Shown here piece by piece: positions 551 through 62,822 of a stretch of 64,000 nucleotides of DNA. How positions within the stretch are numbered: position 1 is the first letter of the stretch; the number at the start of each line of letters is the position of its first letter. Both the position numbers and the translations under genes were made by a program. The stretch covers positions 2,080 to 66,079 of the forward strand of contig CALUGP010000059.1 in NCBI GenBank assembly GCA_944320195.1, written 5' to 3'. Under the pieces are notes generated by a model. That model saw only the letters and a program-made list of their open reading frames with translations, had not been told where the DNA came from and did not search any database. Origin of the DNA: an uncultured Prevotella sp. (GTDB taxonomy: Bacteria; Bacteroidota; Bacteroidia; Bacteroidales; Bacteroidaceae).

Positions 551-632
551 CTTTGTAAAAGGCCGCATTTCACCCGATGAAATGCGGCCTTTTGGCGTGT
601 AAAAGACGGTCTTTCGGAAGGCGAAAGGCCGC
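551..632. repeat. family A (REP/BIME-like AAAGGCCG hairpin array), locus A1
   Basis: AAAAGGCCGCATTTCA-cccga-TGAAATGCGGCCTTTT hairpin plus AAAGACGGTCTTT/GAAAGGCCGC units; downstream of the S46 peptidase gene, abutting element E1. Confidence 0.8.
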
Positions 633-1189
633 AAATTGGGATCATCCGCAGTTTAAGTGTATTGGCATTCGTGTCAATAGGGCCTCGAAGGGGGCGAACT
701 ATGCTTGACCGCATGTGTTGCGAAGCGGAACTTGCGGTAGGTATGCCGCCAATAATATACGTGAGTTCGGCACAAGGAATCATCTTTCAAATTATATAAT
801 TTCTTGCCGCCTTGCTTTTCTGCAGCTCGGTGGCAAGTCGTCATTCCGCTGAAAAGCGGAATCCAGAAAGCGGCATAGTGGTTAGCCGCCTTTGTCTTTT
901 CGACTGGATTCCGCTTTTCAGCGGAATGACGACTTGCCACCGACTTGCAAGAAACGGATAAGTGTGACATTACTGTTATGCCGGACTCACGTAATGATAT
1001 CGTCCTCGAAGAGGGCGAATGTCACCCTGCAGTTCGCCCCCTTCGGGGACGGGCTTGTCAGTTTTGACTTGCCGCAAGTTCCGTTCCCTTCGGTCACTCC
1101 ACATGCGGTTAAGCATAGTTCGCCCCCTTCGGGGACTGGATTGACACCTATACGTTATACACCTGAACTGCGGATGAACCGCAAATTGC
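631..1189. mobile_element. family E MITE-like giant hairpin, long variant (E1, about 560 bp), no coding capacity
   Basis: Termini GCAAATTGGGATCATCCGCAG... / ...CTGCGGATGAACCGCAAATTGC. Arms share blocks such as GAAGGGGGCGAACTATGCTTGACCGCATGTG / CACATGCGGTTAAGCATAGTTCGCCCCCTTC. Central inverted pair GGTGGCAAGTCGTCATTCCGCTGAAAAGCGGAATCCAG (about 828-866) / CTGGATTCCGCTTTTCAGCGGAATGACGACTTGCCACC (about 903-940). Confidence 0.65.
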
Positions 1190-1262
1190 AAGGCGGAATG
1201 CCGTCTTCAGCTTTTTAAGAAAACTTTGCACGCCTGGCGGCCGGATTCTCGCGCAAACGGGT

Positions 1263-1270
1263 TATATTTG
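1263..1270 (+). promoter_or_regulatory. Bacteroidetes -7 box (TAnnTTTG)
   Basis: TATATTTG 15 nt upstream of ATG 1285. Confidence 0.45.
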
Positions 1271-1284
1271 CAGAAACAACTTTT

Positions 1285-1713
1285 ATGGTTATGAGAAAGG
1301 TTCTGTTTGCATTGCTGCTGGCCTGCGGAGCGTTGCCGGCCGCGGCGCAGGAGGCGAGGCCGTTCGACGCGACAATCCACGACGACGAGCACAAGATTTA
1401 CATCAAGATGGACTTGTATGACAAGGACATATCCGTGCCCGGGCAGGACGTGCTGGGCAAGGTGGACGGATACATCGGCTCGAAGCAGAGCCGCACCACG
1501 TGGATGATCATCTCCTCGACCCTCATTGACGAGCGCACGGCCGAGCTGGAGGTGGTCAACGACTATGGCAGCGAGGACTTCACGGCAGAGCTGAAGGCCA
1601 ATCACGACGGCACGTACACTTACCGCAAGAAGGACGGCAGCACGCTGAAGTTCGCCGTCAAGGGAAAGTGGCAGAAGATACCGTCAAGGGTGGAGTTCAG
1701 AAAAGAAAAATAA
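1285..1713 (+). CDS. hypothetical secreted protein
   Basis: Signal peptide MRKVLFALLLACGALPAAAQ; TATATTTG box 15 nt upstream; no family recognised; stop abuts a family-D repeat. Confidence 0.6.
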   Translation: MVMRKVLFALLLACGALPAAAQEARPFDATIHDDEHKIYIKMDLYDKDISVPGQDVLGKVDGYIGSKQSRTTWMIISSTLIDERTAELEVVNDYGSEDFTAELKANHDGTYTYRKKDGSTLKFAVKGKWQKIPSRVEFRKEK

Positions 1714-1752
1714 ACACCCACCCCGGCCCTCCCCAAGGGAGGGAGCTTGGCT
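1714..1752 (-). repeat. family D module (hairpin plus G-run motif), G-rich strand is minus
   Basis: ACACCCACCCCGGCCCTCCCCAAGGGAGGGAGCTTGG. Confidence 0.8.
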
Positions 1753-1861
1753 ACCCGCCGGGTGTTTCGACCCGGCATGACAAGGGCAGCGGAAGCAACT
1801 TCCGGCCAATCAGTCGTCAGGCATTACGGCTTCCTCCATTGGGGAGGGTCGGGGCGGGTCT

Positions 1862-2377
1862 TTATCTCTCCAGCCACCTCTGCAGCCCGTGCCTTATCGA
1901 GCGCAGGCCGAACAGCTCGGTGTGTATGTCCTCCGGGGCAATCCACATGCACTCGGCTGCGTCGTCGCCGGCGGCAAGGCCGGTCGTGTCTTCCACCTCG
2001 CAGGCGAAGAACATGTCGAGCGTCTGTATGTCAAGGTCGGAGTAGCGGTAGACGTTCGTCTGGCTGAACAGGTAGCGCGCGGCCTTGACGGCCAGTCCGG
2101 TCTCCTCCATCACCTCGCGCGCCACGGCCTCCTCGGCCGTCTCGCCAACGTCGGCGAAGCCCCCGGGCAGGTCCAGCGTGCCCTTGGCCGGCTCCATCTT
2201 GCGCCGCTCCACGAGCAGCTCGCCCTTGGCGTTGGTAATCAGCGCCACCACGGCTGCCGCCGGGTTCATGAAGTATTCGAAGCCGCAGTTGCGGCATTTC
2301 TTGCTCTTCGGCGAGTCCTGTTCAAAGTGGGAGCTTCCGCACACGGGGCAATATCCGAACTTTCCAATCAGATCCAT
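1862..2377 (-). CDS. NUDIX hydrolase with N-terminal zinc ribbon (NudC-like architecture)
   Basis: CPVCGS...CRNCG zinc ribbon followed by Nudix box GGFADVGETAEEAVAREVMEETGL. Confidence 0.85.
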   Translation of the reverse strand: MDLIGKFGYCPVCGSSHFEQDSPKSKKCRNCGFEYFMNPAAAVVALITNAKGELLVERRKMEPAKGTLDLPGGFADVGETAEEAVAREVMEETGLAVKAARYLFSQTNVYRYSDLDIQTLDMFFACEVEDTTGLAAGDDAAECMWIAPEDIHTELFGLRSIRHGLQRWLER

Positions 2378-4990: not shown

Positions 4991-5083
4991 CATGTTTTTG
5001 TTAAAATACTGATATTCAGACGGAAAGTTGTCGTTTTTTCGCTATTTCTTTCCGTTTTTCATGCCATGTAACGGGATTTTCGT

Positions 5084-5091
5084 TATATTTG
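5084..5091 (+). promoter_or_regulatory. Bacteroidetes -7 box (TAnnTTTG)
   Basis: TATATTTG 18 nt upstream of ATG 5109. Confidence 0.45.
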
Positions 5092-5108
5092 CCATCGTGT
5101 ACCAAAAA

Positions 5109-6068
5109 ATGTTGACCATGAAGCACTTTCGTCTTGTCTCAGCGTTGTTTTTGTTTCTTTCGGCAATGTCTTTCACTTCGTGCGACGAGGACGGAGACCT
5201 CATCGTGCCGCCGGTGCGCCATGTGTCAGGGGCTGAGTTCGCGCGCCTTGTCGACGGCAAGTCGTGGAAATACGTGGAAAGCCACGAGCTGAACGGCGAC
5301 GGCACGATGCGGAAGGACGGCTATTTCGAGGACCTTATAGGCATAGGCCCCGAGCAATACAGCTTCAGCGGAGATTCCGTCACCACTTACATGTATCTCG
5401 ACGCGTACCCCTTGAAATGTCACAAGGTTGAGAAATACACTTTCCAGGAAGGCACAAACGTCATAAAGGCAGGCCAGGACGACGTGTTCACCGTGGTAAG
5501 CGTAAGCGAGGACCGGCTCTGCATACTGGCCGACAAAGGCTCTGCCGCCGACGGGAAAAGGATGTATGTCTATTCCGTATACCGCGCCATGGCCGCCGGC
5601 GAGCGTCCGTCGCTCAAGGAGTTGTATCCCGTCAATCTCAACACCATCGACGAAGACTATCCATTGTTGCCCGAACAGGAGGACTTGACCGAGGCCGACT
5701 TCACCGCGCTTGCAGTGGGGCGGACGTGGCGGTGCGCCGAGGCGCACGGGCTGTTCGTGACGGGCCGCTATGACAAGGCTGACTTCTTCGCCACTGACAC
5801 GTGGATGAATCCGATAGACTACGAGATAACCGCCGACTCGGTTTACGAAGTGACGCGTCTTGGCGGACGGCCAGAGCCTGTGCGCACGGGCTACGCCTAC
5901 ACGTTCAACGCCAACGGGCGGTACGTCGAGACGCAGGGCGGCACCACGTTCAGCATACTCCGCCTGGCCGGGGACGAGATGCATCTTATACAGCAGAGAT
6001 ACAATACGGCTGGCGGAAGCTCCGCCAGGCTGTACTGCGTTTACCGCCAGGCAGGCTTGGACGAATAA
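5109..6068 (+). CDS. hypothetical lipoprotein
   Basis: Lipobox LSAMSFTSC after MLTMKHFRLVSALFLF; TATATTTG box at 5084-5091; no family recognised. Confidence 0.6.
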   Translation: MLTMKHFRLVSALFLFLSAMSFTSCDEDGDLIVPPVRHVSGAEFARLVDGKSWKYVESHELNGDGTMRKDGYFEDLIGIGPEQYSFSGDSVTTYMYLDAYPLKCHKVEKYTFQEGTNVIKAGQDDVFTVVSVSEDRLCILADKGSAADGKRMYVYSVYRAMAAGERPSLKELYPVNLNTIDEDYPLLPEQEDLTEADFTALAVGRTWRCAEAHGLFVTGRYDKADFFATDTWMNPIDYEITADSVYEVTRLGGRPEPVRTGYAYTFNANGRYVETQGGTTFSILRLAGDEMHLIQQRYNTAGGSSARLYCVYRQAGLDE

Positions 6069-6169: not shown

Positions 6170-6280
6170 CATTTGCCGTCTTTTAGCTCGCCAAAGGCCG
6201 TCTTTTACAGCCCGAAAGGCCGTCTTTTGCAATGCGAAAGACGGCCTTTCGCAAACCCCCTGACAGTGAGCCGTTTAGCA
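6170..6280. repeat. family A array, locus A2 (with flanking GACAGTGAGCCGTTTAGC module)
   Basis: Three AAAGGCCGTCTTT units and one GAAAGACGGCCTTT unit. Confidence 0.8.
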
Positions 6281-9270: not shown

Positions 9271-9363
9271 GTTGCAAAAGGCGGCAAACGGCGTTGCGAA
9301 AGACCGTTTTTCGTCTTGTAAAAGGCCGCCTTTCGCAGGCCAAAATACGGCCTTTTGCAACGC
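9271..9363. repeat. family A array, locus A3
   Basis: GCAAAAGGCGGCAAACGG..GAAAGACCGTTTTT..AAAAGGCCGCCTTTCGCAGGCCAAAATACGGCCTTTTGCAA between aroK and speA. Confidence 0.75.
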
Positions 9364-9463
9364 TGGCGGCACAGCTCGGCCAAGCGCTTGATGTACAGAC
9401 GCTTACGCCGGGGCCATATAAACGAAGGAATAAAACAAGTAAACATAATACAACCACACCTAA

Positions 9464-11367: not shown

Positions 11368-11548
11368 CCTGACACCCACGCCAACCCTCACGAAGGGAGG
11401 AAGCTTAGCAAGCCTTGCCGGTTCCAGCAACGGCTCATTGGCCTTATTTGGCTCATTAGGCCCATTAGGCTAATAAGACTAATAAGGCCAATAAGCCTTA
11501 TTGGTAGTCAAGCTCCCTCCCTTTGGGATGGTTGGGGTGGGTGTCGGG
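11368..11548. repeat. composite D(inverted)-C-D element
   Basis: CCTGACACCCACGCCAACCCTCACGAAGGGAGGAAGCTTAGC (11368-11409), a seven-unit 9-bp tandem array (11432-11505), GTCAAGCTCCCTCCCTTTGGGATGGTTGGGGTGGGTGTCGGG (11507-11548). The two D modules are inverted relative to each other. Confidence 0.8.
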
Positions 11549-12349: not shown

Positions 12350-12464
12350 ATTGCTGTTGACGGCCTTTTGGAAGGCAAAAGGCCGTCAACAGCACGCCAA
12401 AAGGCCGTCTTTTGCAGACCAAAAGACGGCCTTTTGCAAACCCTCTGGCCGTCAGCCACTTAGC
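12350..12464. repeat. family A array, locus A4 (with CCGTCAGCCACTTAGC module)
   Basis: TTGACGGCCTTTTGGAAGGCAAAAGGCCGTCAA hairpin and AAAAGGCCGTCTTTTGCAGACCAAAAGACGGCCTTTT hairpin, directly after the argB stop. Confidence 0.85.
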
Positions 12465-12480
12465 GGCAGGCCACCAGCAG

Positions 12481-12537
12481 CTTATAAGGCTCATTGGCCC
12501 CATTGGCCTAATTGGCTCGATAGGCCAAATAAGCCGC
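12481..12537. repeat. family C minisatellite
   Basis: CTTATAAGGCTCATTGGCCCCATTGGCCTAATTGGCTCGATAGGCCAAATAAGCCGCC. Confidence 0.75.
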
Positions 12538-13594: not shown

Positions 13595-13859
13595 ACAATT
13601 TTCTATGCTTTCTCTATAAAACAGTGTTTAATAAAACAAAAACAACGAAGCTGTGAAGCTTCAATTCTCTCAAATTTTCATAACATACTAACGTGAAGCA
13701 GAGAGCCGCTGTCAAGTGTGACGGCGGCCCTCTTTCTGTTGTGCAGCCAGCCATGGTTTCTCCAAACCCCACTTCCCTCCTTTCCAGGTGGAGTATCCGG
13801 GCATGCGTCCGCAGCCTGTCTTCTGCCCGGGGTGGGGCCGCGGTTTGGCCGCTTTGCCG

Positions 13860-15334: not shown

Positions 15335-15440
15335 CTTGATGGTGTTTGAAAAACTCTGCAAAAGTAAGCATAATATTCCTATTGCGGCCTGCATGGCGGC
15401 TGATATTTGCAAAAACTTTGGCCGCATGCGTAACTGCCTG

Positions 15441-15538
15441 GCGTTGAGCGCATTGCAAAAGGCCGTCTTTCGCAGTGCAAAAGACGGCCTTTCGGCGTGC
15501 GTTTGACGGCCTTTTGCAAGGCGAAAGGCCGTCAATCG
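15441..15538. repeat. family A array, locus A5
   Basis: AAAGGCCGTCTTTcgcagtgcaAAAGACGGCCTTT and TTGACGGCCTTTTgcaaggcGAAAGGCCGTCAA hairpins downstream of the NPP gene. Confidence 0.85.
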
Positions 15539-15549
15539 GAAACTGCCCG

Positions 15550-16731
15550 TCAGCGTGCCAGCAAGTCTTCGGGCACAGAGCCGTCGCACTCAGCCGGCTC
15601 TATGCCAAGCAGGCGGCACAGGGTGGGGTAGACGGCGGTGTTGTCGAACAGCTCGGTTTTCACGTATCCGCGGCGGAAGTCGGGGCCGGCGGCGCGGAAG
15701 AGCACGTTGATTTCGGGCGTATATGGGTCGAAGCCGTGGTTGCCGGGGATAACGCGGTCGTCCTCGCTCACCGTCCAGCCCGCGTCGGGCAGCAGCACTA
15801 TGGGCGCTATGTTGCGGTCGGTGCCATAGTTGAGGTAGGCCGGCACGTCCTCGCGGCGCCACACACGGGCGTGCGGCACGGTCTCAAGAGCCTTCAGAAT
15901 TTGCTTCTCGCGGCCTTTCTTGGGGAAGATAAGGGTGGGCAGGTCAGGCATAATCCGCTCGCACCAGTCGGCCTGCAAATAGTCCGTAAGGCGTATCGTG
16001 CGCTCCGGCGAGGTCTGCGCCATGCCGTGGTCGGACGTTACGATGAAGTTGATGTCGTCTCCGTAGGGCAGCGAGCGCAGGTCGTTGTAGAGCATTCCGA
16101 GCAAACGGTCGAGGCTCTCTACGGCCGCCTTCACCTCCTTCGACGCCGGACCGTAGGAATGTCCGCTGTGGTCGGGCTCGTTGAAGTAAGCCATAACGAG
16201 CTGCGGGCGCTCGCCTTCGGGCAGCTTCATCAGGCGTTCAATCTCGGCGACGCGCTCCGGGAAGGTCAGCAGAGGCCGCCGGGCGTAGTCGTGCCAGTAG
16301 TCGGGGTACTGCCCACGGATAGCCACGTCGGAGCCGGGCCAGTACACCACGCCCGCCTTTACGCCCTGACGCTTGGCGGTAAGCCAGATGGGTTCGCCGC
16401 CGTAGAAGGAGCCGTCCTTGGCCGTCAGCGTGTCGCCGATGCTGTAAGTGCGGCCCGACGCCACGTCATAAAACCTGTTGGCGATGATGCCGTGGTGGTC
16501 GGGCACCAGGCCCGTGGCCAGCGTGTAGTGGTTGGGAAACGTCTTCGACGGGAACGACGGGCGCATCACCGCCCTCACGCCCCTGGCTCCCAGCGAGTCG
16601 AGGAACGGCGTGTCGTACATCTGCGGATAGTCCCAGCGGAAGCCGTCGAGCGACACAATCACCGTGTAATGCCGCCCGGCGTGCGCGAAGAGGGCGGCCA
16701 GGAGGAACAAGATAACAGTAAGTTTTCTCAT
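15550..16731 (-). CDS. ectonucleotide pyrophosphatase/phosphodiesterase (alkaline-phosphatase superfamily)
   Basis: Signal peptide; VSLDGFRWDY, FPSKTFPNHYTLATG, TSDHGM metal and nucleophile motifs of NPP enzymes. Confidence 0.85.
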   Translation of the reverse strand: MRKLTVILFLLAALFAHAGRHYTVIVSLDGFRWDYPQMYDTPFLDSLGARGVRAVMRPSFPSKTFPNHYTLATGLVPDHHGIIANRFYDVASGRTYSIGDTLTAKDGSFYGGEPIWLTAKRQGVKAGVVYWPGSDVAIRGQYPDYWHDYARRPLLTFPERVAEIERLMKLPEGERPQLVMAYFNEPDHSGHSYGPASKEVKAAVESLDRLLGMLYNDLRSLPYGDDINFIVTSDHGMAQTSPERTIRLTDYLQADWCERIMPDLPTLIFPKKGREKQILKALETVPHARVWRREDVPAYLNYGTDRNIAPIVLLPDAGWTVSEDDRVIPGNHGFDPYTPEINVLFRAAGPDFRRGYVKTELFDNTAVYPTLCRLLGIEPAECDGSVPEDLLAR

Positions 16732-16828
16732 TTCTTGATAATGTTTTTAATGCACGTCGCAGGCCTGCAGCATGTCCGTTGCAGCATGCCGTCATGCCGT
16801 CATGGCCGTGCCTTTGTCTGTTTATTAC

Positions 16829-16869
16829 AAAAAGAGGAAATGAATCGAAATAAATCGTTCCATTTCCTC
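16829..16869 (-). terminator. intrinsic terminator candidate downstream of the TonB-dependent receptor
   Basis: On the minus strand GGAGGAAATGGAA-loop-TTCATTTCCTC followed by TTTTTG. Confidence 0.5.
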
Positions 16870-16894
16870 CGATTTGTTCAAAGAAATTTTCTTA

Positions 16895-20218: not shown

Positions 20219-20258
20219 GATGTTTAAATAAATTTGTTTAATACCTTGAAAACTGCCG

Positions 20259-20266
20259 CAAAGATA
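20259..20266 (-). promoter_or_regulatory. Bacteroidetes -7 box for the TonB-dependent receptor
   Basis: Minus-strand TATCTTTG about 40 nt upstream of ATG 20218. Confidence 0.45.
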
Positions 20267-20399
20267 AAAAGAATTTTGTGAACAGATGTTACAAATGCTT
20301 TAAAAGTGGGTAAAAAACGTATTTATATGCGCCTTCACGGGCTGTATTCGGGCGGTTGGCAGGGCGCTGCCCGGGCGGCGGACGGCGGCAGGCGCGTAA

Positions 20400-20529
20400 G
20401 TGGCTGACTGTAAGGGGAATGCTAAAAGGCCGTCTTTCGTCGTGCGAAAGACGGCCTTTTACTGTGCAAAAGATGGCCTTTTGGCTTGCGAAAGACGGTC
20501 TTTCGCAGAGCCGTTTGCGGCCTTTTGCT
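20400..20529. repeat. family A array, locus A6
   Basis: AAAAGGCCGTCTTTCGTCGTGCGAAAGACGGCCTTTT hairpin plus two further units. Confidence 0.85.
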
Positions 20530-20545
20530 GTGGGGCGCGCCGCCG

Positions 20546-24614: not shown

Positions 24615-24780
24615 CTTATTTTTTGCCGAACACAACGATGTTTTGGATTAAATCTGCATTAAATTGTCATTTTTTCACCTTGTGGGCGGGCATTGCCGCG
24701 CCCGGCGCGGCATAAAACCGTGTGCGCCGGCGGCGGTTGTTTCCGCAGCGCAGTGCCGCCAGTGGCGGTGCCGCGTGTAA

Positions 24781-24892
24781 CATGTTGATTGCCAGGCTGT
24801 TATGAAACGCCTCGCAAAAGGCCGTCTTTTAGCTTGTGAAAGACGGCCTTTTGGCGTGCGTTTTGCGGCCTTTTGCAGGGCGAAAGGCCATG
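24781..24892. repeat. family A array, locus A7
   Basis: GCAAAAGGCCGTCTTTTAGCTTGTGAAAGACGGCCTTTTGG hairpin plus GCGGCCTTTTGCAGGGCGAAAGGCC. Confidence 0.85.
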
Positions 24893-24908
24893 TGTTGCTA
24901 TTGCGTTG

Positions 24909-28900: not shown

Positions 28901-29010
28901 GCTAAGTGCCTGATAGCCAGCGCGCTTGCAAAAGGCCGTCTTTCATGTTGCAAAAGACGGCCTTTCAGCGTGCGATTTGCGGCCTTTTGGAACGCGAAAG
29001 GCCGCAAATC
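28901..29010. repeat. family A array, locus A8 (in a divergent promoter region, abutting E2)
   Basis: GCAAAAGGCCGTCTTTCATGTTGCAAAAGACGGCCTTTC hairpin plus GCGGCCTTTTGGAACGCGAAAGGCCGC hairpin. Confidence 0.85.
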
Positions 29011-29427: not shown

Positions 29428-29455
29428 CACCAATTTCACCATATTAATATATAAG

Positions 29456-32431: not shown

Positions 32432-32567
32432 GCATCAGCCGGTTTGCGAAAGGCCGCAAACCGCCTTGCAAAAGGCGGCAAATCGCGCGGTGAAAGGCCG
32501 TCTTTTAAAGGCCAAAAGGCGGCCTTTTGCAGAGTCGCATGCATGTGGCTGATTGTCAAGGGGTTGC
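32432..32567. repeat. family A array, locus A9
   Basis: Units GCGAAAGGCCGCAAACC, GCAAAAGGCGGCAAATC, GAAAGGCCGTCTTTTAAAGGCCAAAAGGCGGCCTTTTGC; TCAGCCGGTTTGC-type module on both sides. Confidence 0.8.
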
Positions 32568-34044: not shown

Positions 34045-34051
34045 ATGACAT

Positions 34052-34180
34052 GAAAGGCGGCAAACGGCGTTGCGAAAGGCCGTCATTTAGGCGGTAAAAG
34101 GCCATCTTTCGCAGGCTGAAAGGCGGTCTTTTGCAATATGGTTTGCATCCTTTTTGTAAGTTGCTGATTGTCAAGAAGTT
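34052..34180. repeat. family A array, locus A10
   Basis: GAAAGGCGGCAAACGG, GCGAAAGGCCGTCATTT, AAAAGGCCATCTTTCGCAGGCTGAAAGGCGGTCTTTTGC; GCTGATTGTCAAG module. Confidence 0.8.
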
Positions 34181-34244
34181 CCATTTTTGACATAATATGG
34201 CAACTGAGATAAGTATACATGATGCACTTGTTAATGCGGCAAGT

Positions 34245-38056: not shown

Positions 38057-38142
38057 AAAAGGTCGTCTTTCGCACGATGAAAGACGGCCTTTTGCGTTGC
38101 GATTTGCGCCCTTTTGGCGTGTAAAAGGCCGTCTTTTGAAAG
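38056..38142. repeat. family A array, locus A11
   Basis: AAAAGGTCGTCTTTCGCACGATGAAAGACGGCCTTTT hairpin plus further units, between convergent tcdA and the M16 peptidase gene. Confidence 0.85.
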
Positions 38143-42345: not shown

Positions 42346-42456
42346 GCGAAAGGCCGTCTTTTGCGTTGCGAAAGGCCATGAATCGCGTTGCAAAAGGCCG
42401 TCTTTTGCACGCCAAAAGACTGCCTTTTGCAACGCGTTGAGCATCAGCCAGTTAGG
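42346..42456. repeat. family A array, locus A12 (divergent region)
   Basis: GCGTTGCAAAAGGCCGTCTTTTGCACGCCAAAAGACTGCCTTTTGCAACGC long hairpin plus two units; GCATCAGCCAGTTAGG module. Confidence 0.85.
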
Positions 42457-42529: not shown

Positions 42530-42689
42530 AGGTAAACGGCGGTCCGCGCTGCTGCGGCGACAGGTGAAAAAATGCAAATATGGAGCGTTGCGGGTTTTAC
42601 TTTCGGCGGTTTTCGGGGTCTATATGATAAAGAGCGCGTCGGCAGACGCGGCGTTTCTATAGATGTAAAACCTAAAAATCCATACTGTT

Positions 42690-45379: not shown

Positions 45380-45562
45380 TCAATAAGCCTTCGGCGCAAG
45401 AATCCATAACAGTATGTAGGCCAGAAATCCTGTGCCGTATCCGAACACAAGAAAGGCGAACGCGATGCGTACAAGCAGCGGGTCGATGTTGAAATACTCG
45501 GCTATGCCGCCGCAGACACCGCCTATTATCCTGTCGGTGGAGGAACGGTAAAACCTTCTCAT
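45380..45562 (-). CDS. PspC domain-containing small membrane protein
   Basis: MRRFYRSSTDRIIGGVCGGIAEYFNIDPLLVRIAF... is the PspC N-terminal signature. Alternative ATG at 45604. Confidence 0.75.
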   Translation of the reverse strand: MRRFYRSSTDRIIGGVCGGIAEYFNIDPLLVRIAFAFLVFGYGTGFLAYILLWILAPKAY

Positions 45563-45617
45563 GTCATATGTTTCTGATTTTAATGTAACTGATGTGTCGG
45601 GCATGGCCGTCCGCCTG

Positions 45618-45733
45618 TTTTGCGAAAGGCCGTCTTTTGTCTTGTGAAAGGCCGCCTTTCGTGTCCTAAAAGGCGGTCTTTTGCAACCTGAAAGGCGGCT
45701 TTTTACAAAGTGCTTGATTGTCAGCGGTTTAGC
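45618..45733. repeat. family A array, locus A13 (inside the arg gene string)
   Basis: GCGAAAGGCCGTCTTTTGTCTTGTGAAAGGCCGCCTTTCG, AAAAGGCGGTCTTTTGCAACCTGAAAGGCGGCTTTTT; TTGATTGTCAGCGGTTTAGC module. Confidence 0.8.
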
Positions 45734-45736
45734 AGG

Positions 45737-45872
45737 CACATTCGGCTTATATGGCTTATTGGGTCTAATTGGCCTGATAAGCGCGGTGAGCCGAATATGC
45801 CAAGGCTGTGAACCAACCGGCAAAAGCATACCAAGCCCTCTCCCTTCTGGATGGTTGGGGTGGGTGTCGGGG
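45737..45872 (+). repeat. family C plus family D
   Basis: CACATTCGGCTTATATGGCTTATTGGGTCTAATTGGCCTGATAAGCGCGGTGAGCCGAATATGCC ... CCAAGCCCTCTCCCTTCTGGATGGTTGGGGTGGGTGTCGGGG. Confidence 0.8.
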
Positions 45873-49310: not shown

Positions 49311-49517
49311 AATCTTCTTGTTTTTTGTTAAGTTCCGTTTTGTTGAGTGTTTGCGCCGGGGCGGCGTGCCCCGGCCGTATCGGCTGCAAACATACGTAAA
49401 AAAAACGACAAACGCTTTTCTTTTAATAAATTTCATTGAATATTCACATTTCTTCTTCGTCCGCACGGGTGCTTCGCGCGCCGTCTCCGCGGACGCTTCC
49501 GGGCCTGCTGCGTAACG

Positions 49518-49617
49518 GTCTGGCACTCAGCGCGTTGCAAAAGGCCGTCTTTCAGTCTGCAAAAGACGGCCTTTTGCAACGCGTTTTGCGGCCTTTTGGA
49601 ATGCAAAAGGCCGTGAA
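49518..49617. repeat. family A array, locus A14 (divergent region)
   Basis: Perfect 21-bp stem 49532-49552 / 49562-49582 (GCGTTGCAAAAGGCCGTCTTT ... AAAGACGGCCTTTTGCAACGC) with a 9-nt loop, plus a second short hairpin. Confidence 0.9.
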
Positions 49618-49725
49618 ACGCATTCCGCCCCGTGGCTCGGCGGCAGTCAGGCCGCCGCGGCGGGCAAAGGTTTTACATTTTTAATAAAAAGCGGAAAAAT
49701 ATTTGCACGTATGCGATTTTATTAC

Positions 49726-49794: not shown

Positions 49795-50262
49795 ATGATA
49801 GACAAGAACGTTGTTAGAAGTTTAGTTGAAGAATGGCTGAAGGACAAGGAGTATTTCCTGGTCGACGTCGAAATCAGCCCCGATGACAAGATTGTGGTAG
49901 AGATAGACCACGCCGACGGAGTGTGGATTGAAGACTGTGTGCAGCTGAGCCGTTACATAGAAGACCACCTGAGCCGCGACGAGGAGGACTACGAGCTTGA
50001 GGTGGGCAGCGCCGGCCTGGGCCAGCCCTTCAAGGTTCCGCAGCAGTACGAGAACTTCGTGGGCAAGGACGTCGAGGTGCTCGACGCCGCCGGCAAGAAG
50101 CACCGCGGCACGCTCAAGGCCGTCGACGGCCGCATGTTCACCGTCACCGTGCAGGAAAAGGTGAAGAAGGAAGGAGCCAAGCGCCCTGTCATTGAAGACG
50201 TGGACAAGACGTTCTCGATGGACGAAGTGAAGTACACCAAGTACCTGATAAGCTTTAAATAG
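49795..50262 (+). CDS. rimP: ribosome maturation factor RimP
   Basis: Position upstream of nusA; LEVGSAGLGQPFK motif; ATG 49795. Confidence 0.88.
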   Translation: MIDKNVVRSLVEEWLKDKEYFLVDVEISPDDKIVVEIDHADGVWIEDCVQLSRYIEDHLSRDEEDYELEVGSAGLGQPFKVPQQYENFVGKDVEVLDAAGKKHRGTLKAVDGRMFTVTVQEKVKKEGAKRPVIEDVDKTFSMDEVKYTKYLISFK

Positions 50263-50362
50263 AAGGAGAGACGGTGAGTGACGAGGCGCCGGGGAACGTT
50301 CCAGATCCTCTCAGTTCTCCCGGTTATCCCGATTTCTCATTAGGAAAAAACAATAAAAACAT

Positions 50363-51625
50363 ATGGCAACAAGAAAGAGTGGTGAAGACACCGTGAGCAT
50401 GGTGGACACCTTTAAGGAATTCAAAGACACGAAGAACATCGACCGCACCACGCTGATGAGCGTCCTGGAAGAGAGTTTCCGCAACGTCATCGCCAAGATA
50501 TTCGGCAGCGACGAGAACTTCGACGTCATCGTGAACCCCGACAAGGGCGACTTCGAAATCTACCGCAACCGCATCGTCGTGGCCGACGGCGAGGTGAAAG
50601 ACGAGAACAAGGAAATATCGCTTACCGACGCGCTGAAGATAGAACCCGACTACGAGGTGGGCGAGGAAGTCAGCGAGAAGGTCGATTTCAGTAAGTTCGG
50701 CCGCCGCGCCATACTCAACCTGCGCCAGACACTGGCCTCGAAAATACTCGAGCTTGAGCACGACAGCCTCTACAACAAGTACAAGGATCGCGTGGGCCAG
50801 GTAATCAGCGCCGAGGTCTACCAGGTGTGGAAGCGCGAAGTTCTGCTCGTGGACGACGAGAACAACGAGCTCATCCTGCCGAAGTCAGAGCAGATACCCC
50901 ACGACGTCTACCGCAAGGGCGAGACCGTGCGCGCCGTCATCAAGGAAGTGAACAACGAGAACAACAACCCCAAGATAATCCTCTCGCGCACGAGCAACAT
51001 GTTCCTCGAACGCCTGCTCGAGGCCGAAGTGCCCGAGATCGCAGACGGACTCATCACCATACGCCGCATCGCACGCATGCCCGGCGAGCGCGCCAAGATA
51101 GCCGTCGAGAGCTATGACGACCGCATAGACCCCGTAGGAGCGTGCGTCGGAGTGAAGGGAAGCCGCGTCCACGGCATCGTTCGCGAACTCTGCAACGAGA
51201 ACATCGACGTGGTGAACTACACCGCAAACATAAAGCTCTTCATACAGCGCGCGCTCAGTCCGGCCAAGATATCAAGCATCAACGTCGACGAGGAAAACAA
51301 GAAAGCGGAGGTGTATCTCCGTCCGGAGGAAGTATCCCTCGCCATCGGCCGCGGCGGAATGAACATCAAGCTGGCCAGCATGCTTACCGAATACACCATC
51401 GACGTGTTCCGCGAACTTGACGAGAGCGAAGTCGACGAGGACATCTACCTCGACGAATTCTCAGACGAAATAGACCAGTGGATCATCGACGCCATCAAAG
51501 GCATCGGCCTCGACACCGCCAAGGCCGTGCTCAACGCTCCGCGCGAGATGCTCGTCGAGAAGGCCGACCTCGAGGAAGAGACCGTCGACAACGTGCTGAA
51601 AGTGCTTAGGGCGGAGTTTGAATAA
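50363..51625 (+). CDS. nusA: transcription termination/antitermination factor NusA
   Basis: S1 and two KH domains (ARMPGERAKIAV, VGACVGVKGSRV, AIGRGGMNIKLA). Confidence 0.96.
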   Translation: MATRKSGEDTVSMVDTFKEFKDTKNIDRTTLMSVLEESFRNVIAKIFGSDENFDVIVNPDKGDFEIYRNRIVVADGEVKDENKEISLTDALKIEPDYEVGEEVSEKVDFSKFGRRAILNLRQTLASKILELEHDSLYNKYKDRVGQVISAEVYQVWKREVLLVDDENNELILPKSEQIPHDVYRKGETVRAVIKEVNNENNNPKIILSRTSNMFLERLLEAEVPEIADGLITIRRIARMPGERAKIAVESYDDRIDPVGACVGVKGSRVHGIVRELCNENIDVVNYTANIKLFIQRALSPAKISSINVDEENKKAEVYLRPEEVSLAIGRGGMNIKLASMLTEYTIDVFRELDESEVDEDIYLDEFSDEIDQWIIDAIKGIGLDTAKAVLNAPREMLVEKADLEEETVDNVLKVLRAEFE

Positions 51626-54643: not shown

Positions 54644-54686
54644 GGGCGGACGGGGACTTGGCTCCCTGTCCGCCTTTCTTGTTTTT
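54644..54686 (+). terminator. intrinsic terminator candidate downstream of infB
   Basis: GGCGGACGGGGA-cttggc-TCCCTGTCCGCC (one G-U pair) followed by TTTCTTGTTTTT. Confidence 0.7.
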
Positions 54687-54974
54687 GCGAAAGGGATTCA
54701 TCCGCAAACCTTTTGGATTAAACATAAGTTCTATTAATGACACCATCCAACCTTAATCCAGGCAGTCGGTAACTGTCATTCCGCGCCTTGACGTGGAATC
54801 CGGAGAACATCCTATACATCAAACAGCATATGCTGTATTTACTGGATTCCGCGTCGGAGCGCGGAATGACAGTTACTGACCACCTGGATTATGGCAGGAT
54901 GTATTTGTAAATGAAATAATGTGTCACATTTAATAGAGCCGTATGTCCATCCGAGAGGTTTGCGGATGAACTGC
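54686..54974 (-). mobile_element. family E MITE-like element, short variant (E3), inverted copy of E2
   Basis: GGGATTCATCCGCAAACCTTTTGGATTAAAC...GGTAACTGTCATTCCGCGCC...GGAATGACAGTTAC...GAGGTTTGCGGATGAACTGC. By eye, roughly nine in ten positions are identical to the reverse complement of E2. Confidence 0.75.
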
Positions 54975-55062
54975 GGAAGGCCGCAAAACGCCGTGCGAAA
55001 GGCCGTCAATCGCAACGTAAAAGGCCGTCTTTCACACGCTGAAAGACGGCCTTTTGCAATTG
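54975..55062. repeat. family A array, locus A15 (abutting E3)
   Basis: GGAAGGCCGCAAAACG, GCGAAAGGCCGTCAATCG, AAAAGGCCGTCTTTCACACGCTGAAAGACGGCCTTTT hairpin. Confidence 0.85.
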
Positions 55063-55078
55063 GCTGTGCCACAGGCTG

Positions 55079-55993
55079 TTACGCGCCTGGCTGCAGATGT
55101 GCCCGCATGGAGGCTATTTTCTCGCTGAGATACCGCCTGAAGCCGTCTCCGCCCAGCACCCGTATGTCGTCGTAAAGGCCGAGCACGAAGCGCCCTATGC
55201 CGGCGTAGCTGCACACATCGAGGCGCAGGCGGTGGCGTCCGCCGCCGTCGGGCACGACGTGGGGCATGGCCTGGGGATACTCCTCGCGCAGTATGTTGTA
55301 AGACAAGGGGCCGAGCGTGATGTCTACGGGCAGCAGCGCCTCGCCGCTGAACATGAACACGTCGGTGAACATCTGGCGGTGCTTGTCCTCGTGCTCCCAC
55401 TCTGTCTCGAGCATCTCCACGCCCTGCATGCGGCTTATCTTGAACGTCTTGTTCATGCCGCTGGACGGCTCGTAGCAGCGCGCCTCGTTGTTGTTGTTCA
55501 TCAGCAGGAACGGTTCAACGAAGCGGTCGCGCACGGTCTGGCTGTGGGGCGAGGCGTAGCCGCGCAGCACTACCTGGCGGCGCAGCTTTATCGCGTCGTA
55601 GAGCACACCGATGCTGCGCACCGCGTGCTCTCGCAGCTGTTCGTCGGCCAGTATGTCGAAGTCGTAGAAATTCTCCAGTTTCCTTTTCAGCCCGGCTATC
55701 AGGGCGTTGCCGTGCTCGGCCTTGTCGAGCATGCGGCGCAGCAGCACCGCCTCTTCCTCGGTGAAGGATATGCGGCTTACCAGGTGGCTGAAGAAGGGCG
55801 ACGAGCGGTCTATCGTGTGGTAGGCGCCGTGCTTCTGCACCTTGAAGCCGCAGTCGCGGAAGAACTCCAGGTAGTAGTAAAGGTTGCGGCGGGATATCCC
55901 CACCTTGTCGCAGAGTTCGTTTACGGTGTATCTGTGGTTCTCGGCGAGCAGCAACAGCAGGTGGAGCTCGCGCTCAAGTTTGTCGTGGCGCAC
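55079..55993 (-). CDS. HTH + WYL-like domain transcriptional regulator (YafY-like)
   Basis: N-terminal HTH YTVNELCDKVGISRRNLYYYLEFF; central VVLRGYASPHSQTVRDRFVEPFLLM... resembles a WYL domain. Confidence 0.65.
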   Translation of the reverse strand: MRHDKLERELHLLLLLAENHRYTVNELCDKVGISRRNLYYYLEFFRDCGFKVQKHGAYHTIDRSSPFFSHLVSRISFTEEEAVLLRRMLDKAEHGNALIAGLKRKLENFYDFDILADEQLREHAVRSIGVLYDAIKLRRQVVLRGYASPHSQTVRDRFVEPFLLMNNNNEARCYEPSSGMNKTFKISRMQGVEMLETEWEHEDKHRQMFTDVFMFSGEALLPVDITLGPLSYNILREEYPQAMPHVVPDGGGRHRLRLDVCSYAGIGRFVLGLYDDIRVLGGDGFRRYLSEKIASMRAHLQPGA

Positions 55994-60929: not shown

Positions 60930-60935
60930 TTTATT

Positions 60936-61085
60936 TAATTCATAATTGGCTTTCGCCGAACTTCGTTTCACAATTCATAATACATAATCGGGCTGCGCCT
61001 TGTCAATTCATAACCCATAATGCGTAATCCATAATAATAATGGCGTATGCCCAATTATGAATTGTGAATTATGAATTATGAATTA
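60936..61085. repeat. family B word-palindrome, locus B14 (AATTCATA words) between sufB and sufC
   Basis: TTAATTCATAATTGG...CAATTCATAA...ATTCATAACCCATAA... / CCAATTATGAATTGTGAATTATGAATTATGAATTAA. Same subfamily as B9. Confidence 0.8.
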
Positions 61086-61090
61086 AAGAT

Positions 61091-62551
61091 TTACCCTACT
61101 GTCCCCTCCAGCGACACGCTGAGCAGCTTCTGAGCCTCAACGGCGAACTCCATGGGCAGCTTGTTAAGCACTTCCTTGGCGTATCCGTTGACGATGAGGC
61201 CCACGGCTTGCTCGGTCGGTATGCCGCGCTGGTTGCAGTAGAAGAGCTGTTCCTCGCTGATTTTGCTGGTCGTAGCCTCATGCTCAACTATGGCCGAGTC
61301 GTTGTGTATGTCCATGTAGGGGAACGTGTGCGCGCCGCAGTCTGAGCCGAGCAGCAGCGAGTCGCACGACGAATAGTTGCGGGCATTGTCGGCATTAGGC
61401 GACACGCGCACCAGTCCTCGGTACGAGTTCTGGCTGTGCCCGGCGCTGATACCCTTGCTTATGATGGTACTCTTGGTGTTCTTTCCCAAGTGAATCATCT
61501 TCGTTCCGGTGTCAGCTTCCTGATAATTGTTGGTCACTGCCACGGAATAAAACTCCGCCACCGAGTTGTCTCCGCGCAATATGCACGACGGATACTTCCA
61601 TGTTATTGCCGACCCCGTCTCTACCTGCGTCCACGAGAGCTTCGAGTTATTGCCCCGCAGGTCGCCGCGCTTGGTCACGAGATTCAGCACACCGCCTCGC
61701 CCGTGCTCGTCGCCGGGATACCAGTTCTGCACCGTTGAGTATTTCACTTCGGCGTTGTCTTTCACTATTATCTCGACGATGGCGGCATGAAGCTGGTTCT
61801 CGTCGCGCATCGGAGCGGTGCATCCTTCAAGGTAAGACACGTAGCTGTCGTCCTCGGCGATGATGAGCGTACGCTCGAACTGCCCCGTATTCCTCGCGTT
61901 TATGCGGAAATACGAACTGAGCTCCATCGGACTACGCACGCCCTTGGGTATGTAGACGAACGAGCCGTCGCTGAAAACGGCGCTGTTAAGCGCGGCGAAG
62001 AAATTGTCACGGTACGGCACAACACTGCCCAAATACTCACGCACGAGGTCGGGATGCTGCTTCACCGCGTCGCCTATCGAGCAGAATATGATACCCTTCT
62101 CGGCCAGTTTCTCCTTATACGTAGTCTTCACCGACACCGAGTCCATTATCGCGTCGACGGCCGTCTGACCGCTCAGCGCGAGGCGTTCCTCGAGCGGAAT
62201 GCCCAGCTTGTCAAACGTTTTCATCAGCTCAGGGTCAATCTCCTTCTTGCCCTCGTCCTTCTTCTTGGCCATAGGGTCGGCATAGTAAGATATTGCCTGG
62301 TAGTCGATGTCGGGCACGTTGACGTGCCCCCACGTCGGCTGCTCCAGCGTCTGCCAGTAGTTGAAGGCCTTAAGGCGGAAGTCGAGCAGCCACTCCGGCT
62401 CACCTTTCTTTGCCGAGATGAGACGCACCACGTCCTCGTTAAGTCCTACGTCGATTATGTCCGTATGCACGTCGGTAGTAAAGCCGAACTCGTATTTCTG
62501 CTCGGCCACCTGGCGCACAAACTCGTTCTGGTTGTTGTTTACTGTCTCCAT
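61091..62551 (-). CDS. sufB: Fe-S cluster assembly scaffold SufB
   Basis: [13 protein letters not shown]... start (ATG 62551); conserved C-terminal [21 protein letters not shown]. Confidence 0.95.
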
Positions 62552-62605
62552 TCTTGTAAAACCAATAGTCGCCGGGCTTTGCCGGGACACATTTCTGCAA
62601 GTTTG

Positions 62606-62613
62606 CAAAGATA
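62606..62613 (-). promoter_or_regulatory. Bacteroidetes -7 box for sufBCDS
   Basis: Minus-strand TATCTTTG 55 nt upstream of ATG 62551. Confidence 0.5.
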
Positions 62614-62685
62614 AGCAATAATGGATGCACAAGCAAAATTTTACATATAAAAAAACAAAACATGTGTGGCCGTATGCCCTGTTGC

Positions 62686-62822
62686 AGCCTGTCAGCATGT
62701 ATGCCGAATTTCAAAAGGCCGTAAATCGCAATGCGAAAGGCCGTCGATTACAACGCAAAAGGCCGTGTTTCACGATGCGAAACACGGCCTTTTGCGAACA
62801 TGCTGATTGTCAGCGGTTTGCG
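62686..62822. repeat. family A array, locus A16 (flanking module overlaps the stop codon of the 62810 CDS)
   Basis: CAAAAGGCCGTAAATCG, GCGAAAGGCCGTCGATT, AAAAGGCCGTGTTTCACGATGCGAAACACGGCCTTTT hairpin, CTGATTGTCAGCGGTTTGCG module. Confidence 0.85.

Follow-up and report, generated by a model that had tools for sequence, protein, structure and literature searches.

An intergenic repeat of Prevotellaceae resembling REP/BIME elements: four phased units and a palindromic tail box

The 64,000-nucleotide stretch of DNA analyzed here (the window) comes from a chicken-gut Prevotellaceae bacterium and carries a short repeat, family A, at a density of about one copy per 4 kb. Is this repeat a terminator, a mobile element, or an intergenic element kept in place for another reason? 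A search for AAAGGCCGTCTTT with at most one mismatch gave 38 matches in the window against 0.04 expected, a number reached in 0 of 100 shuffles. All 38 matches were intergenic and were spread over 16 loci, the same 16 at which a sequence-only reading had placed family A.

Each copy occupies 110–125 bp between genes and consists of four 22-bp units in strict phase, together with a palindromic tail box. The unit is a 22-bp quasi-palindrome, TTGCAAAAG-GCCGT-CTTTTGCAA, and the starts of the 13-mer blocks are exactly 22 bp apart regardless of block orientation. Two to four half-sites per locus had been described; instead, 15 of the 16 loci showed four blocks at this phase (the fourth block of the 6171 locus is degenerate), and the locus at 20425 had five. 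The locus is an oriented module with the tail on one side of the unit array. The two tail-side units make up a symmetric T hairpin (A4-GGCCGTC-T3 / A3-GACGGCC-T4), and 128 of 164 T hairpins had two in-phase units on exactly one side. The tail box (consensus YTGAnTRTCAR-N3-GTTAC; fuller form GCAAC-N3-TTGAT-N-ATCAA-N3-GTTRC) is present in most copies and is the module of about 20 nt already reported to accompany the arrays. It was found in 92 of 141 copies, at an offset of +9/+10 in 76 and +21 in 15, and an exact WATCARNNNNTTR match stood at a fixed offset in 48 of 141 copies, against a background of 0.5%.

The elements of the window are listed below; pairing is given as paired positions out of 13, and family E is a MITE family found beside some copies.

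Element 1, 530..636, minus strand: blocks at 558, 580, 602, and 624; tail box 530-547 (TTGGGCATCAGAGCGTTA on the minus strand); tail-side hairpin a variant, AAAGGCCGCATTT/AAATGCGGCCTTT, 13/13; a family-E-like end adjoins block 4 at 637.
Element 2, 6171..6277, plus strand: blocks at 6171 (degenerate), 6193, 6215, and 6237; T hairpin 6215/6237 13/13; tail-like box 6260-6277.
Element 3, 9277..9355, plus strand, decayed: blocks at 9277, 9299, 9321, and 9343; pair 9321/9343 11/13; tail uncertain, weak match at 9388-9405.
Element 4, 12356..12462, plus strand: both hairpins perfect (12356/12378, 12400/12422); tail box 12445-12462; located between argB and a sigma-70-family gene.
Element 5, 15431..15536, minus strand: T hairpin 15458/15480 13/13, distal pair 12/13; tail 15431-15448; orthologs in both L036 and L047; marks the left edge of a 5-kb segment missing from L047.
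Element 6, 20397..20525, minus strand: five blocks, 20425 to 20513; T hairpin 20425/20447 13/13; tail-like box about 20397-20414; some strains have a different four-unit element and a GDPD gene at this site; not present in M. massiliensis (L036).
Element 7, 24778..24895, minus strand: T hairpin 24817/24839 13/13; tail 24778-24795, containing an exact WATCAANNNNTTR match; 79-bp unit array the same in 9/10 strains, with one substitution in L116; 1-bp deletion in the flank in L122.
Element 8, 28903..29009, minus strand: both hairpins perfect; tail 28903-28920; between divergent genes; family-E MITE 29010-29296 adjoins block 4; left boundary of a 5-kb segment missing from L054.
Element 9, 32449..32566, plus strand: T pair 32493/32515 12/13; tail 32549-32566; exactly one 22-bp unit missing in strain L116.
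Element 10, 34053..34181, plus strand, decayed: best pair 10/13; tail 34164-34181; right boundary of the segment missing from L054.
Element 11, 38058..38136, minus strand: T pair 12/13, the mismatch being T at 38063 (C in most strains); no tail; flanked by an AT-rich TTAACTCTTAATTC repeat.
Element 12, 42349..42454, plus strand: T pair 42393/42415 12/13; tail 42437-42454; between divergent genes; tail and T arms conserved in the L029 ortholog, whose unit 1 is changed at 5/13 positions.
Element 13, 45625..45731, plus strand: GGCCGCC/GGCGGTC-type blocks; tail 45714-45731; inside the arg gene string (argG, element, PspC-like, argC, aminotransferase); not present in L029; crossed by metatranscriptome contigs.
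Element 14, 49513..49618, minus strand, the best example: stem extending to 21 bp (49532-49552/49562-49582); distal pair 11/13; tail 49513-49530; between divergent Bax1-I-family and rimP genes; loops of both hairpins reverse-complemented in some strains.
Element 15, 54976..55081, plus strand: T hairpin 55020/55042 13/13; tail 55064-55081; family-E MITE 54680-54972 adjoins block 1; ortholog in L087.
Element 16, 62714..62820, plus strand: T hairpin AAAGGCCGTGTTT/AAACACGGCCTTT, doubly changed, 13/13; tail 62803-62820, overlapping the stop codon (62810-62812) of the 62810-63970 gene.

The tail-side pair was fully paired at 10 of the 16 window loci and reached at least 12/13 at 14. The distal pair reached at least 11/13 at only four, and clade-wide at least 12/13 in 24 of 141 copies. 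Only a minority of loci fit the proposed arrangement of one long and one short hairpin; a distal hairpin forms in only about a quarter of copies. The 21-bp stem of element 14 is exact, as had been reported, and the element folds at a dG of −62 kcal/mol (z −10). Folding of four well-preserved copies on both strands gave −52 to −72 kcal/mol (z −6 to −10), and the decayed 45625 copy gave −35.5 kcal/mol (z −3.4).

It had been argued that stem variants usually change both halves, so that pairing is maintained. In the window this was overstated: only CACGGCC (62758/62780) and GCATTT (558/580) are doubly changed, and GGTCGT, GGCCAT, and GGCGGC are single, unpaired changes. Clade-wide, 20 non-consensus hairpins were perfect and 23 had one mismatch. 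Strains differ by inversion of the whole loop and by homogenization of the arms. Template switching leaves this signature and has been described in print as giving rise to loop inversions and to compensatory changes in a single step (PMC8794818), so "compensatory" changes can arise without selection, and the double changes that do exist are weakened as evidence for it. The T arms matched the clade consensus at 26/26 positions in eight of the 16 window copies, which were sampled independently of the search pattern, and two further perfect T hairpins with variant cores (558, 62758) bring the total to 10 of 16. By simple arithmetic, about 1.5% of T arms would still be perfect after neutral decay to about 15% divergence, against the 8/16 observed. 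Outside the window, T-hairpin perfection is inflated because loci there were fetched with a perfect-hairpin pattern. Ectopic conversion could homogenize the T arms without any function.

Family A was confined to one Prevotellaceae clade, comprising Marseilla and "Prevotella" CAG:924/CAG:1058-like species, in at least 20 genomes. More than 105 matching stretches were obtained, nearly all labelled Prevotella, Marseilla, or Prevotellaceae, and one a "Bacteroidales bacterium" MAG. There were no matches in the phage and plasmid collections IMG/VR, PLSDB, and INPHARED, and the family was not found in Rfam or in the published literature. We regard it as a previously undescribed repeat that resembles the REP/BIME of E. 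coli. Syntenic comparison with relatives showed orthologous copies retained at the same sites between species at about 85–90% identity, with some copies missing (L029, L036); judged from these sequences, the copies are shown to be old and to have passed down vertically, each at its fixed place between genes. Both the T-arm sequence and the 22-bp phase are stable, against turnover in the loops, the spacers, and the distal units. Change takes the form of loop inversion with arm homogenization, loss of exact 22-bp units, and replacement of units by other family variants, as in the ortholog of the 42349 copy. Arrays at synteny breakpoints numbered 18/31 against 9.0 expected, an approximately twofold enrichment that is confounded because array-holding gaps are longer and lie at operon boundaries. 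Two 5-kb window segments bounded by A elements are missing in relatives (L047 and L054, respectively), and a GDPD gene is present or absent by strain at the 20425 site.

It is structurally plausible that A elements act as bidirectional intrinsic terminators, and they might be nothing else, their similarity resulting from selection for an optimal hairpin with no mobile or DNA-level role. The T hairpin is a palindrome of A-tract, GC core, and T-tract that is the same on either strand and folds very stably. At least one gene lies upstream of 13 of the 16 window copies, as had been noted, other canonical terminators show no excess in the window, and for copies whose tail side points to a 3′ end, the median distance to the stop codon is 11–20 bp. 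However, the 122 classified copies fell into four context classes of 43, 29, 26, and 24, and 26 of them (21%) lie between divergent gene starts; the three divergent contexts described in the window (28931, 42349, and 49540) were confirmed. An array is present in 42% of divergent, 40% of convergent, and 26% of tandem gaps, so the copies are not simply terminators, in agreement with the earlier claim. Orientation relative to transcription is not fixed (43 vs. 29), and overall neither orientation nor gene context departs far from random. The element within the arg gene string, also correctly described, is crossed by transcript contigs (assembled metatranscriptome contigs, which break at repeats). 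The tail box and two extra phased units are superfluous for termination, and exact identity of the 13-mer in at least 20 species exceeds the structural requirement. We consider it unlikely that these copies are plain terminators. A short, exactly conserved, clade-specific, and very abundant motif in inverted pairs could also be a DNA uptake sequence for natural transformation. Neisseria uptake sequences (DUS) form terminator-like pairs, often inverted ones in terminators, and the window has a dprA gene, although dprA is nearly universal in bacteria. We give this very little credence: all 38 copies are outside genes, the motif is confined to the four-unit module with its tail, a restriction left unexplained by uptake, the copies keep their position instead of scattering, and we know of no uptake specificity in Bacteroidota.

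Mobilization by a RAYT had been suggested from the likeness to REP elements, together with the correct remark that the window holds no transposase gene. The copies would then be REPIN-like non-autonomous elements moved by a single-copy RAYT (IS200/IS605-type Y1 HUH) encoded elsewhere, which would recognize the T hairpin or the tail box. Inverted short palindromic units that are intergenic, clade-specific, and high in copy number are indeed typical of REP and REPIN. The ends of IS200/IS605 elements (IS608) carry guide and cleavage motifs, which the conserved small box with its fixed ...GTTAC beside the hairpin recalls. CGTC-type REPs without an adjacent transposase are already known, Bacteroidetes included (PMC3733652). 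However, no Y1 transposase or RAYT was found among six-frame ORFs in about 0.9 Mb around about 180 copies in 20 or more genomes (about 1% of their sequence), in a phmmer search with a single distant seed, E. coli RayT, whose best E-value was 1.8; mobilization by RAYT is thus not supported. The hairpin foot lacks the GTAG or CGTC tag of the catalogued REP superfamilies, and the outer bases of the small tail palindrome showed no covariation. There was no insertion or excision polymorphism at seven sites across 7–10 strains, and between-species comparison gave no clean empty site. We view a RAYT origin as possible but doubtful. Family A could otherwise consist of classical MITEs mobilized by a DDE transposase, or form the terminal portion of something larger, for example family E. 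Its size of about 110–125 bp and its copy number would fit, and the two families are physically linked, since in many species E ends join A units at a constant register; the A-like sequences reported at E ends are real. But E adjoins only about 10–15% of A copies, unit 1 and the tail box are not mutual inverted repeats, neither a target-site duplication nor an empty site was seen at A copies, and no recurrent, multi-copy transposase family was found in the sampled surroundings. An origin as a MITE is very unlikely.

The parallel with E. coli REP/BIME (IHF-site BIME-1/RIB/RIP) stood up well. Both are abundant, modular sets of short extragenic imperfect palindromes whose clustered units alternate in orientation with linkers of fixed length, and both A and BIME-1/RIB/RIP have an accessory box matching the IHF consensus. 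Both occur at 3′ ends and in non-terminator contexts, and are associated with rearrangements and insertion of other mobile elements. Family A differs in belonging to another phylum, Bacteroidota, in lacking the GTAG tag, and in having four units in strict 22-bp phase, whereas E. coli BIME arrays are variable. Its box is itself palindromic and is placed beyond the unit array instead of between two REPs, and no RAYT was found for A.

Other systems share some of these features. The CGTC-tagged REP superfamily occurs in Bacteroidetes without a dedicated transposase (Di Nocera et al., 2013, PMC3733652), and its members have 8–9 bp stems with outer A/T, loops of 4–5 nt, and mostly head-to-head dimers (PMC3733652). 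The A unit resembles them in its 9-bp TTGCAAAAG stem, its GCCGT loop, and its dimers. However, CGTC is inside the unit core in A and not an unpaired end tag, the CCA tail is lacking, four phased units and a tail box are present, and covariation is between units, not within a unit. As in the REPIN-RAYT systems of Pseudomonas and E. coli, two inverted REP-like units make a long hairpin, and the elements are clade-specific, long-persisting, and vertically inherited; A has extra units and a tail, with no detected RAYT or 5′ tetranucleotide tag. Neisseria NIME (dRS3/RS) and Correia elements are likewise intergenic short-repeat arrays at rearrangement sites and targets for mobile DNA, and those of the Correia type contain an IHF site and are capable of termination. 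Their sequences are unrelated to A, NIME arrays are of variable length, and Correia elements, unlike A, have terminal inverted repeats and a TA duplication. The BrickBuilt MITE of Porphyromonas gingivalis is also from Bacteroidales and intergenic, with units of about 22–23 nt and distinct flanking parts; it is built of 1 to about 23 bricks of 23 nt in direct tandem, where A has its four units in inverted pairs; its leader and tail regions reach up to about 300 nt and end in inverted repeats, where A has a short tail; and there are only 19 copies per genome, where A occurs about once per 4 kb (PMC4596501).

We favor, with a probability of roughly 0.55, the explanation that family A represents a composite, BIME-like intergenic repeat specific to one Prevotellaceae lineage, probably under constraint at the DNA level. 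The primary constraint probably acts on DNA because orientation and context are near random, occupancy is as high in divergent as in convergent gaps, and the 22-bp phase corresponds to about two turns of the helix. By analogy with REP/BIME, a sequence- or structure-specific protein, HU/IHF-like or another dimer, may bind the element, and/or its units may form cruciforms; the two tail-side units would make a symmetric hairpin or cruciform. The likeness of the tail box to the IHF consensus is a resemblance; IHF in its canonical form belongs to proteobacteria, and the symmetric box suits a homodimer rather than IHF. Where it is transcribed, the T hairpin could in addition serve as an intrinsic terminator in either direction, or as a block to 3′ exonucleases.

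Family A, the set of intergenic repeat modules in the window, is recognized by the 13-mer AAAGGCCGTCTTT, which gave 38 matches (at most one mismatch) in the 64 kb against 0.04 expected from dinucleotide-preserving shuffles. None of the 38 lay inside a called gene, and they fell at the 16 loci already picked out in the sequence-only reading. A looser 8-mer search of the window returned the same 16 intergenic clusters, with genic matches scattered at chance level. The family makes up about 3% of the window, with roughly one copy per 4 kb. The window has Bacteroidota-like genes (a Dpp7-like peptidase, ArgR, rimP-nusA-infB, TonB-dependent receptors) and a GC content of 53-60%; a tRNA scan found no tRNAs in it, and the sequencing runs that contain the region are chicken-gut and manure metagenomes.

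Orienting 141 copies, drawn from the window as well as from fetched loci, by the side carrying further in-phase units gave one consensus module. Its 5' part consists of unit 1, 9 nt, unit 2 (often AAAGGCCGTCAAT or AAAGGCCATGAAT), TGCAcGCTA, AAAGGCCGTCTTT and a 9-nt loop; the loop is followed by AAAGACGGCCTTT, TGCAAcgc, YTGAnTRTCAR, N3 and GTTAC. We call the hairpin of the two units adjoining the tail the T hairpin, its halves the T arms, and the other two units the distal pair. The starts of neighbouring 13-mers are exactly 22 bp apart in the same and in opposite orientation alike, two in-phase units stand on exactly one side of 128 of the 164 T hairpins, and 15 of the 16 window loci have four blocks, the remaining one having five. 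The spacer consensus between blocks is TGCAnGCTA, and the hairpin is flanked by conserved GCAnGCTA (5') and TGCAA (3'). Each 22-bp unit is a near-palindrome by itself (TTGCAAAAG GCCGT CTTTTGCAA), and its orientation is set only by the central 7 bp (GGCCGTC or GACGGCC). REP elements are short (20-40 bp), extragenic, high-copy imperfect palindromes, a description that fits the 22-bp units and their 38 intergenic core matches in the 64 kb; the alternation of units with fixed linkers that marks a BIME is seen in the usual patterns + - - + and + + + -.

The tail box is present in 92 of the 141 copies, at +9/+10 in 76 and at +21 in 15. With the TGCAAC behind unit 4 it forms an imperfect 27-bp palindrome, GCAAC-N3-TTGAT-N-ATCAA-N3-GTTRC. 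Covariation was looked for in the outer bases of the small tail palindrome and was absent, so the idea of the tail as a selected RNA or ssDNA hairpin was dropped. An exact match to WATCARNNNNTTR, which we take to be the E. coli IHF consensus, occurs at a fixed offset in 48 of the 141 copies (background, 0.5% per 60 nt); as consensus resemblance alone, it is a lead towards putative IHF-like binding. Directly behind the tail box of several A elements stand short repeats of the GGCTTATAAGGCTCATTGGCC, GGCCAATGAGCCGAAT and CCTGATAAG type, probably another repeat family:

Window 11481-11502: short repeats of this type
Window 12465-12500: short repeats of this type
Window 42455-42530: short repeats of this type
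Window 45732-45800: short repeats of this type

Four well-preserved modules folded at -52 to -72 kcal/mol (z -6 to -10) on either strand, and the decayed 45625 copy (copies are named by block start) at -35.5 kcal/mol (z -3.4). One long and one short hairpin had been proposed for each locus. The T hairpin is strong: in the window, where loci were not chosen by the search pattern as the fetched loci were, its arms pair at 13/13 positions in 10 of the 16 loci and at 12/13 or more in 14. The distal pair forms a hairpin in a minority only (at least 11/13 in 4 of the 16 window loci); over the whole clade a mean of 8.87 of its 13 positions form Watson-Crick pairs, against 8.40 with shuffled partners, and the distal units are inverted in 38 copies, direct in 17 and neither in 86. 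Perfect hairpins changed in both arms (GGCCACC/GGTGGCC, TGCCGTC, CATGGCC, CACGGCC) number 20 in all, against 23 single-mismatch pairs; counting core variants genome by genome told nothing, since the consensus hairpin had been used to fetch the loci. The split in a PWM test of loop orientation (80 against 29) was set aside as evidence, since a non-hairpin control spacer split similarly (81 against 21).

The rimP site (copy 49540) holds the same A element in seven strains of the window species. In some of these both hairpins carry their loop as the reverse complement (CAGTCTGCA against TGCAGACTG; GGAATGC against GCATTCC), and an imperfect arm pair of these strains has turned perfect. Template switching during replication yields loop inversions and one-step "compensatory" changes (PMC8794818), and the differences at the rimP site match this published footprint. 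Paired stem variants alone, such as the doubly changed hairpins, therefore do not show selection for pairing. The rimP-nusA spacer is 21 bp longer in one strain (L001 3552-3674, against window 50262-50363). Ten further strains were compared across six other sites, and the differences were point changes, the deletion of exactly one 22-bp unit (L116 at 32449), and two haplotypes at the 20425 site, one of five units without a gene, the other pairing a GDPD (glycerophosphodiester phosphodiesterase) gene with a different A element of four units. Among these strains and sites, no A element showed a clean insertion or excision. The haplotypes at the 20425 site were read from the following stretches (L numbers denote compared loci from related species or strains):

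Window 20219-20545: 20425 site, between the TlpA-like and TonB-dependent receptor genes
L113, L115, L117, L120 and L122, about 18190-19500: the same site, between the same genes

Between species, orthologous A copies are kept at 42349 (L029), 15458 (L036 and L047), 12356 (L047), 49540 (L064), 54976 (L087) and 28931 (L054), and are absent from the 20425 site in L036 and the 45625 site in L029. The T arms and the 22-bp phase are exactly conserved in copies older than speciation, and the loops and distal units turn over freely. In the 42349 orthologs the flanks, tail and T arms are conserved and unit 1 differs at 5 of 13 positions, both versions being ordinary variants of the family; this suggests that the difference arose by ectopic conversion. 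No clean empty site was found between species. Sites lacking the A element differ over the entire intergenic region, and this leaves no definable target site.

Family A also lies where gene content changes. Two segments of the window are bounded by A elements, and in the related species of L047 and L054 a single A element stands in place of each:

Window 15537-20424, about 5 kb: A elements at both ends; phosphodiesterase and TonB-dependent receptor
Window 29010-34052, about 5 kb: A elements at both ends; PCMD/DUF5018, OMP beta-barrel, calycin-like and DUF2851 genes

Over all locus pairs, gaps with A arrays hold 18 of the 31 intergenic synteny breakpoints; the expectation for gaps drawn at random within the same locus is 9.0, and the comparison is confounded by gap length and operon position. 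The arrays are also joined by family E, palindromic MITE-like elements with A-like ends:

Window 29010-29296: family-E palindromic MITE, ends GGTTCATCCGCAA...
Window 54680-54972: family-E palindromic MITE, ends GGTTCATCCGCAA...
Window 637 to about 890: variant family-E MITE
Window 1168-1185: solitary family-E end

The register of these elements at A-array edges is fixed: one end is separated by 2-5 nt from the unit-1 13-mer block, and the other is fused to the first 6-8 nt of an A block (AAAGGC|GG, ATTGAC|GG, ATTTGC|GG); such junctions were seen in L007, L010, L013, L016, L019, L021, L041, L065, L069, L086, L095 and L110. This register suggests that A units are targets of family E, or that the two have a terminal recognition sequence in common; REP-targeting insertion sequences exist in Proteobacteria. 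An AT-rich repeat family (TTAACTCTTAATTC / AACTTCTTTAAC), often in hairpins or tandem runs, adjoins A elements as well, and occupies the same intergenic slots in relatives where A is missing:

Window 38010-38057: AT-rich repeats
L036 360-490: AT-rich repeats
L054 490-1240: AT-rich repeats
L080 about 6176-6280: AT-rich repeats
L028 about 5050-5210: AT-rich repeats

A scan of one genome per species for the hairpin pattern AAAGGCCGTCTTT-N9-AAAGACGGCCTTT gave more than 105 stretches. Among the matches listed, all were labelled Prevotella, Marseilla or Prevotellaceae except one "Bacteroidales bacterium" MAG; they include Marseilla massiliensis An824, Ca. Prevotella stercoripullorum, Prevotella sp. 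CAG:924 and CAG:1058, and the UMGS1285, UMGS1360 and UMGS1733 assemblies. The fetched stretches did not include the window's own genome, and parts of the window are syntenic with relatives of 83-90% identity. Family A is common to at least 20 gut Prevotellaceae species from chicken and human. The hairpin pattern had no match in IMG/VR viral contigs, nor the whole element in PLSDB (plasmids) or INPHARED (phages).

In 122 copies the flanking genes could be classified by the end they turn towards the module; given as unit-1 side/tail side, these ends were 5'/3' in 43, 3'/5' in 29, 5'/5' in 26 and 3'/3' in 24. Among gaps of 30 bp or more, 42% of the divergent, 40% of the convergent and 26% of the tandem ones hold an array; shorter gaps hold none. 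Terminator positions are thus not the only places where family A occurs, and transcription does not fix how its copies are oriented. The distance from the tail to the stop codon of the facing gene is variable, the stop sometimes lying within the tail. A generic terminator scan is blind to A hairpins because it allows loops of up to 8 nt and theirs is 9 nt; other canonical terminators showed no excess over shuffled sequence in the window, where a few GC-rich terminator-like hairpins unrelated to A were seen (54644-54675, 22195-22223, 13705-13728). Metatranscriptome contigs span the 45625 copy within the arg gene string; this RNA material consists of assembled contigs, which break at repeats and have no readable 3' ends. 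At the same place, a 149-aa ORF (window 45380-45829, minus strand) is over-called: the PspC domain is its last 58 residues only, and its N-terminal part reads through the A element.

In architecture, the closest analogue of family A would be the E. coli BIME, especially its IHF-site-bearing form. The whole window had no Rfam match at the gathering score, a relaxed Rfam search of one locus gave only generic hairpin matches below threshold, the 13-mer AAAGGCCGTCTTT was not found in the literature searched, and a literature search for Prevotella or Bacteroidales REP-like elements gave nothing specific. The GTAG-type REP superfamily is defined by a conserved unpaired GTAG tetranucleotide at one hairpin foot (PMC3733652); the A hairpin has no such tag at its foot, where GCAnGCTA (5') and TGCAA (3') stand. 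CGTC REPs occur in Bacteroidetes without a dedicated transposase (PMC3733652). They have a terminal unpaired CGTC, an 8-9 bp stem, a 4-5 nt loop and a CCA tail; the palindrome dimensions within an A unit fit, but the CGTC of family A belongs to the unit core, and no CCA tail is present. The BrickBuilt MITE of P. gingivalis has a variable number of direct tandem 23-nt repeats and a long leader and tail with inverted-repeat ends (PMC4596501), whereas in family A the unit number is fixed at four, the units form inverted pairs and the tail is short.

Taken together, the conserved T arms and phase, the turnover of loops and distal units, the indifference to gene context and orientation, the palindromic box at a fixed distance and the association with breakpoints and family E are judged to fit best a BIME-like element constrained mainly as DNA, by putative protein binding and/or cruciform formation. 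Once transcribed, the module would also act as a bidirectional hairpin, and the elements would change through template switching, unit slippage and conversion (probability about 0.55). That the copies are REPINs driven by a RAYT, the parallel drawn in the sequence-only reading, we consider rather unlikely. The window annotation bears out that reading's statement that no transposase gene is present, and phmmer with E. coli RayT (from NC_000913.3) found no match in 8,395 six-frame ORFs (about 0.9 Mb, about 1% of the genomes concerned); when the 676 proteins called near copies were clustered, only housekeeping paralogues emerged (ABC ATPases, MATE transporters, AraC regulators, glycosidases and similar).

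Three further explanations are judged to fit less well than the BIME-like one. Plain terminators would agree with the intrinsic-terminator structure, a GC-rich stem and U-tract, that the fold gives on both strands; yet 21% of copies lie between divergent starts and the family is not limited to terminator positions, and we hold this account to be improbable. A MITE moved by a DDE transposase should have terminal inverted repeats and a target-site duplication, but the unit-1 and tail ends of family A are not inverted copies of each other, and neither such a duplication nor a clean empty site was seen in species or strain comparisons; we regard this account as very improbable. DNA uptake sequences (DUS/USS) are over-represented genome-wide, including inside genes, and are preferentially taken up by competent cells. 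Family A shares the abundance, but none of its 38 copies is genic and the 13-mer occurs only within the composite module, and we give this explanation hardly any credence.

REP/BIME-type repeats are well studied in Proteobacteria and, to our knowledge, barely described in Bacteroidota, the dominant phylum of gut microbiomes. Family A flags sites of difference in gene order and content, both between species and between strains. It also breaks short-read assemblies: metatranscriptome and metagenome contigs end at its copies, and the quality of MAGs from this clade is therefore affected. The loop flips between strains are a natural case of template switching that mimics compensatory evolution, and call for caution in covariation-based RNA structure calls. 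The rigid geometry (four units, 22-bp phase, palindromic tail) gives a search for a binding protein or enzyme in the cultured M. massiliensis An824 a well-defined starting point. As a speculation that we hold to be distinctly unlikely, the phase-locked arrays and tail box might be the recognition platform of a putative sequence-specific DNA-binding or recombination system of the clade's own, organizing the chromosome or transcription units and making the arrays preferred joints for the exchange of gene segments and landing pads for family-E MITEs; on this view family A, served by a protein partner of its own, would correspond in Bacteroidota to REP/BIME and would not be a decayed transposon.
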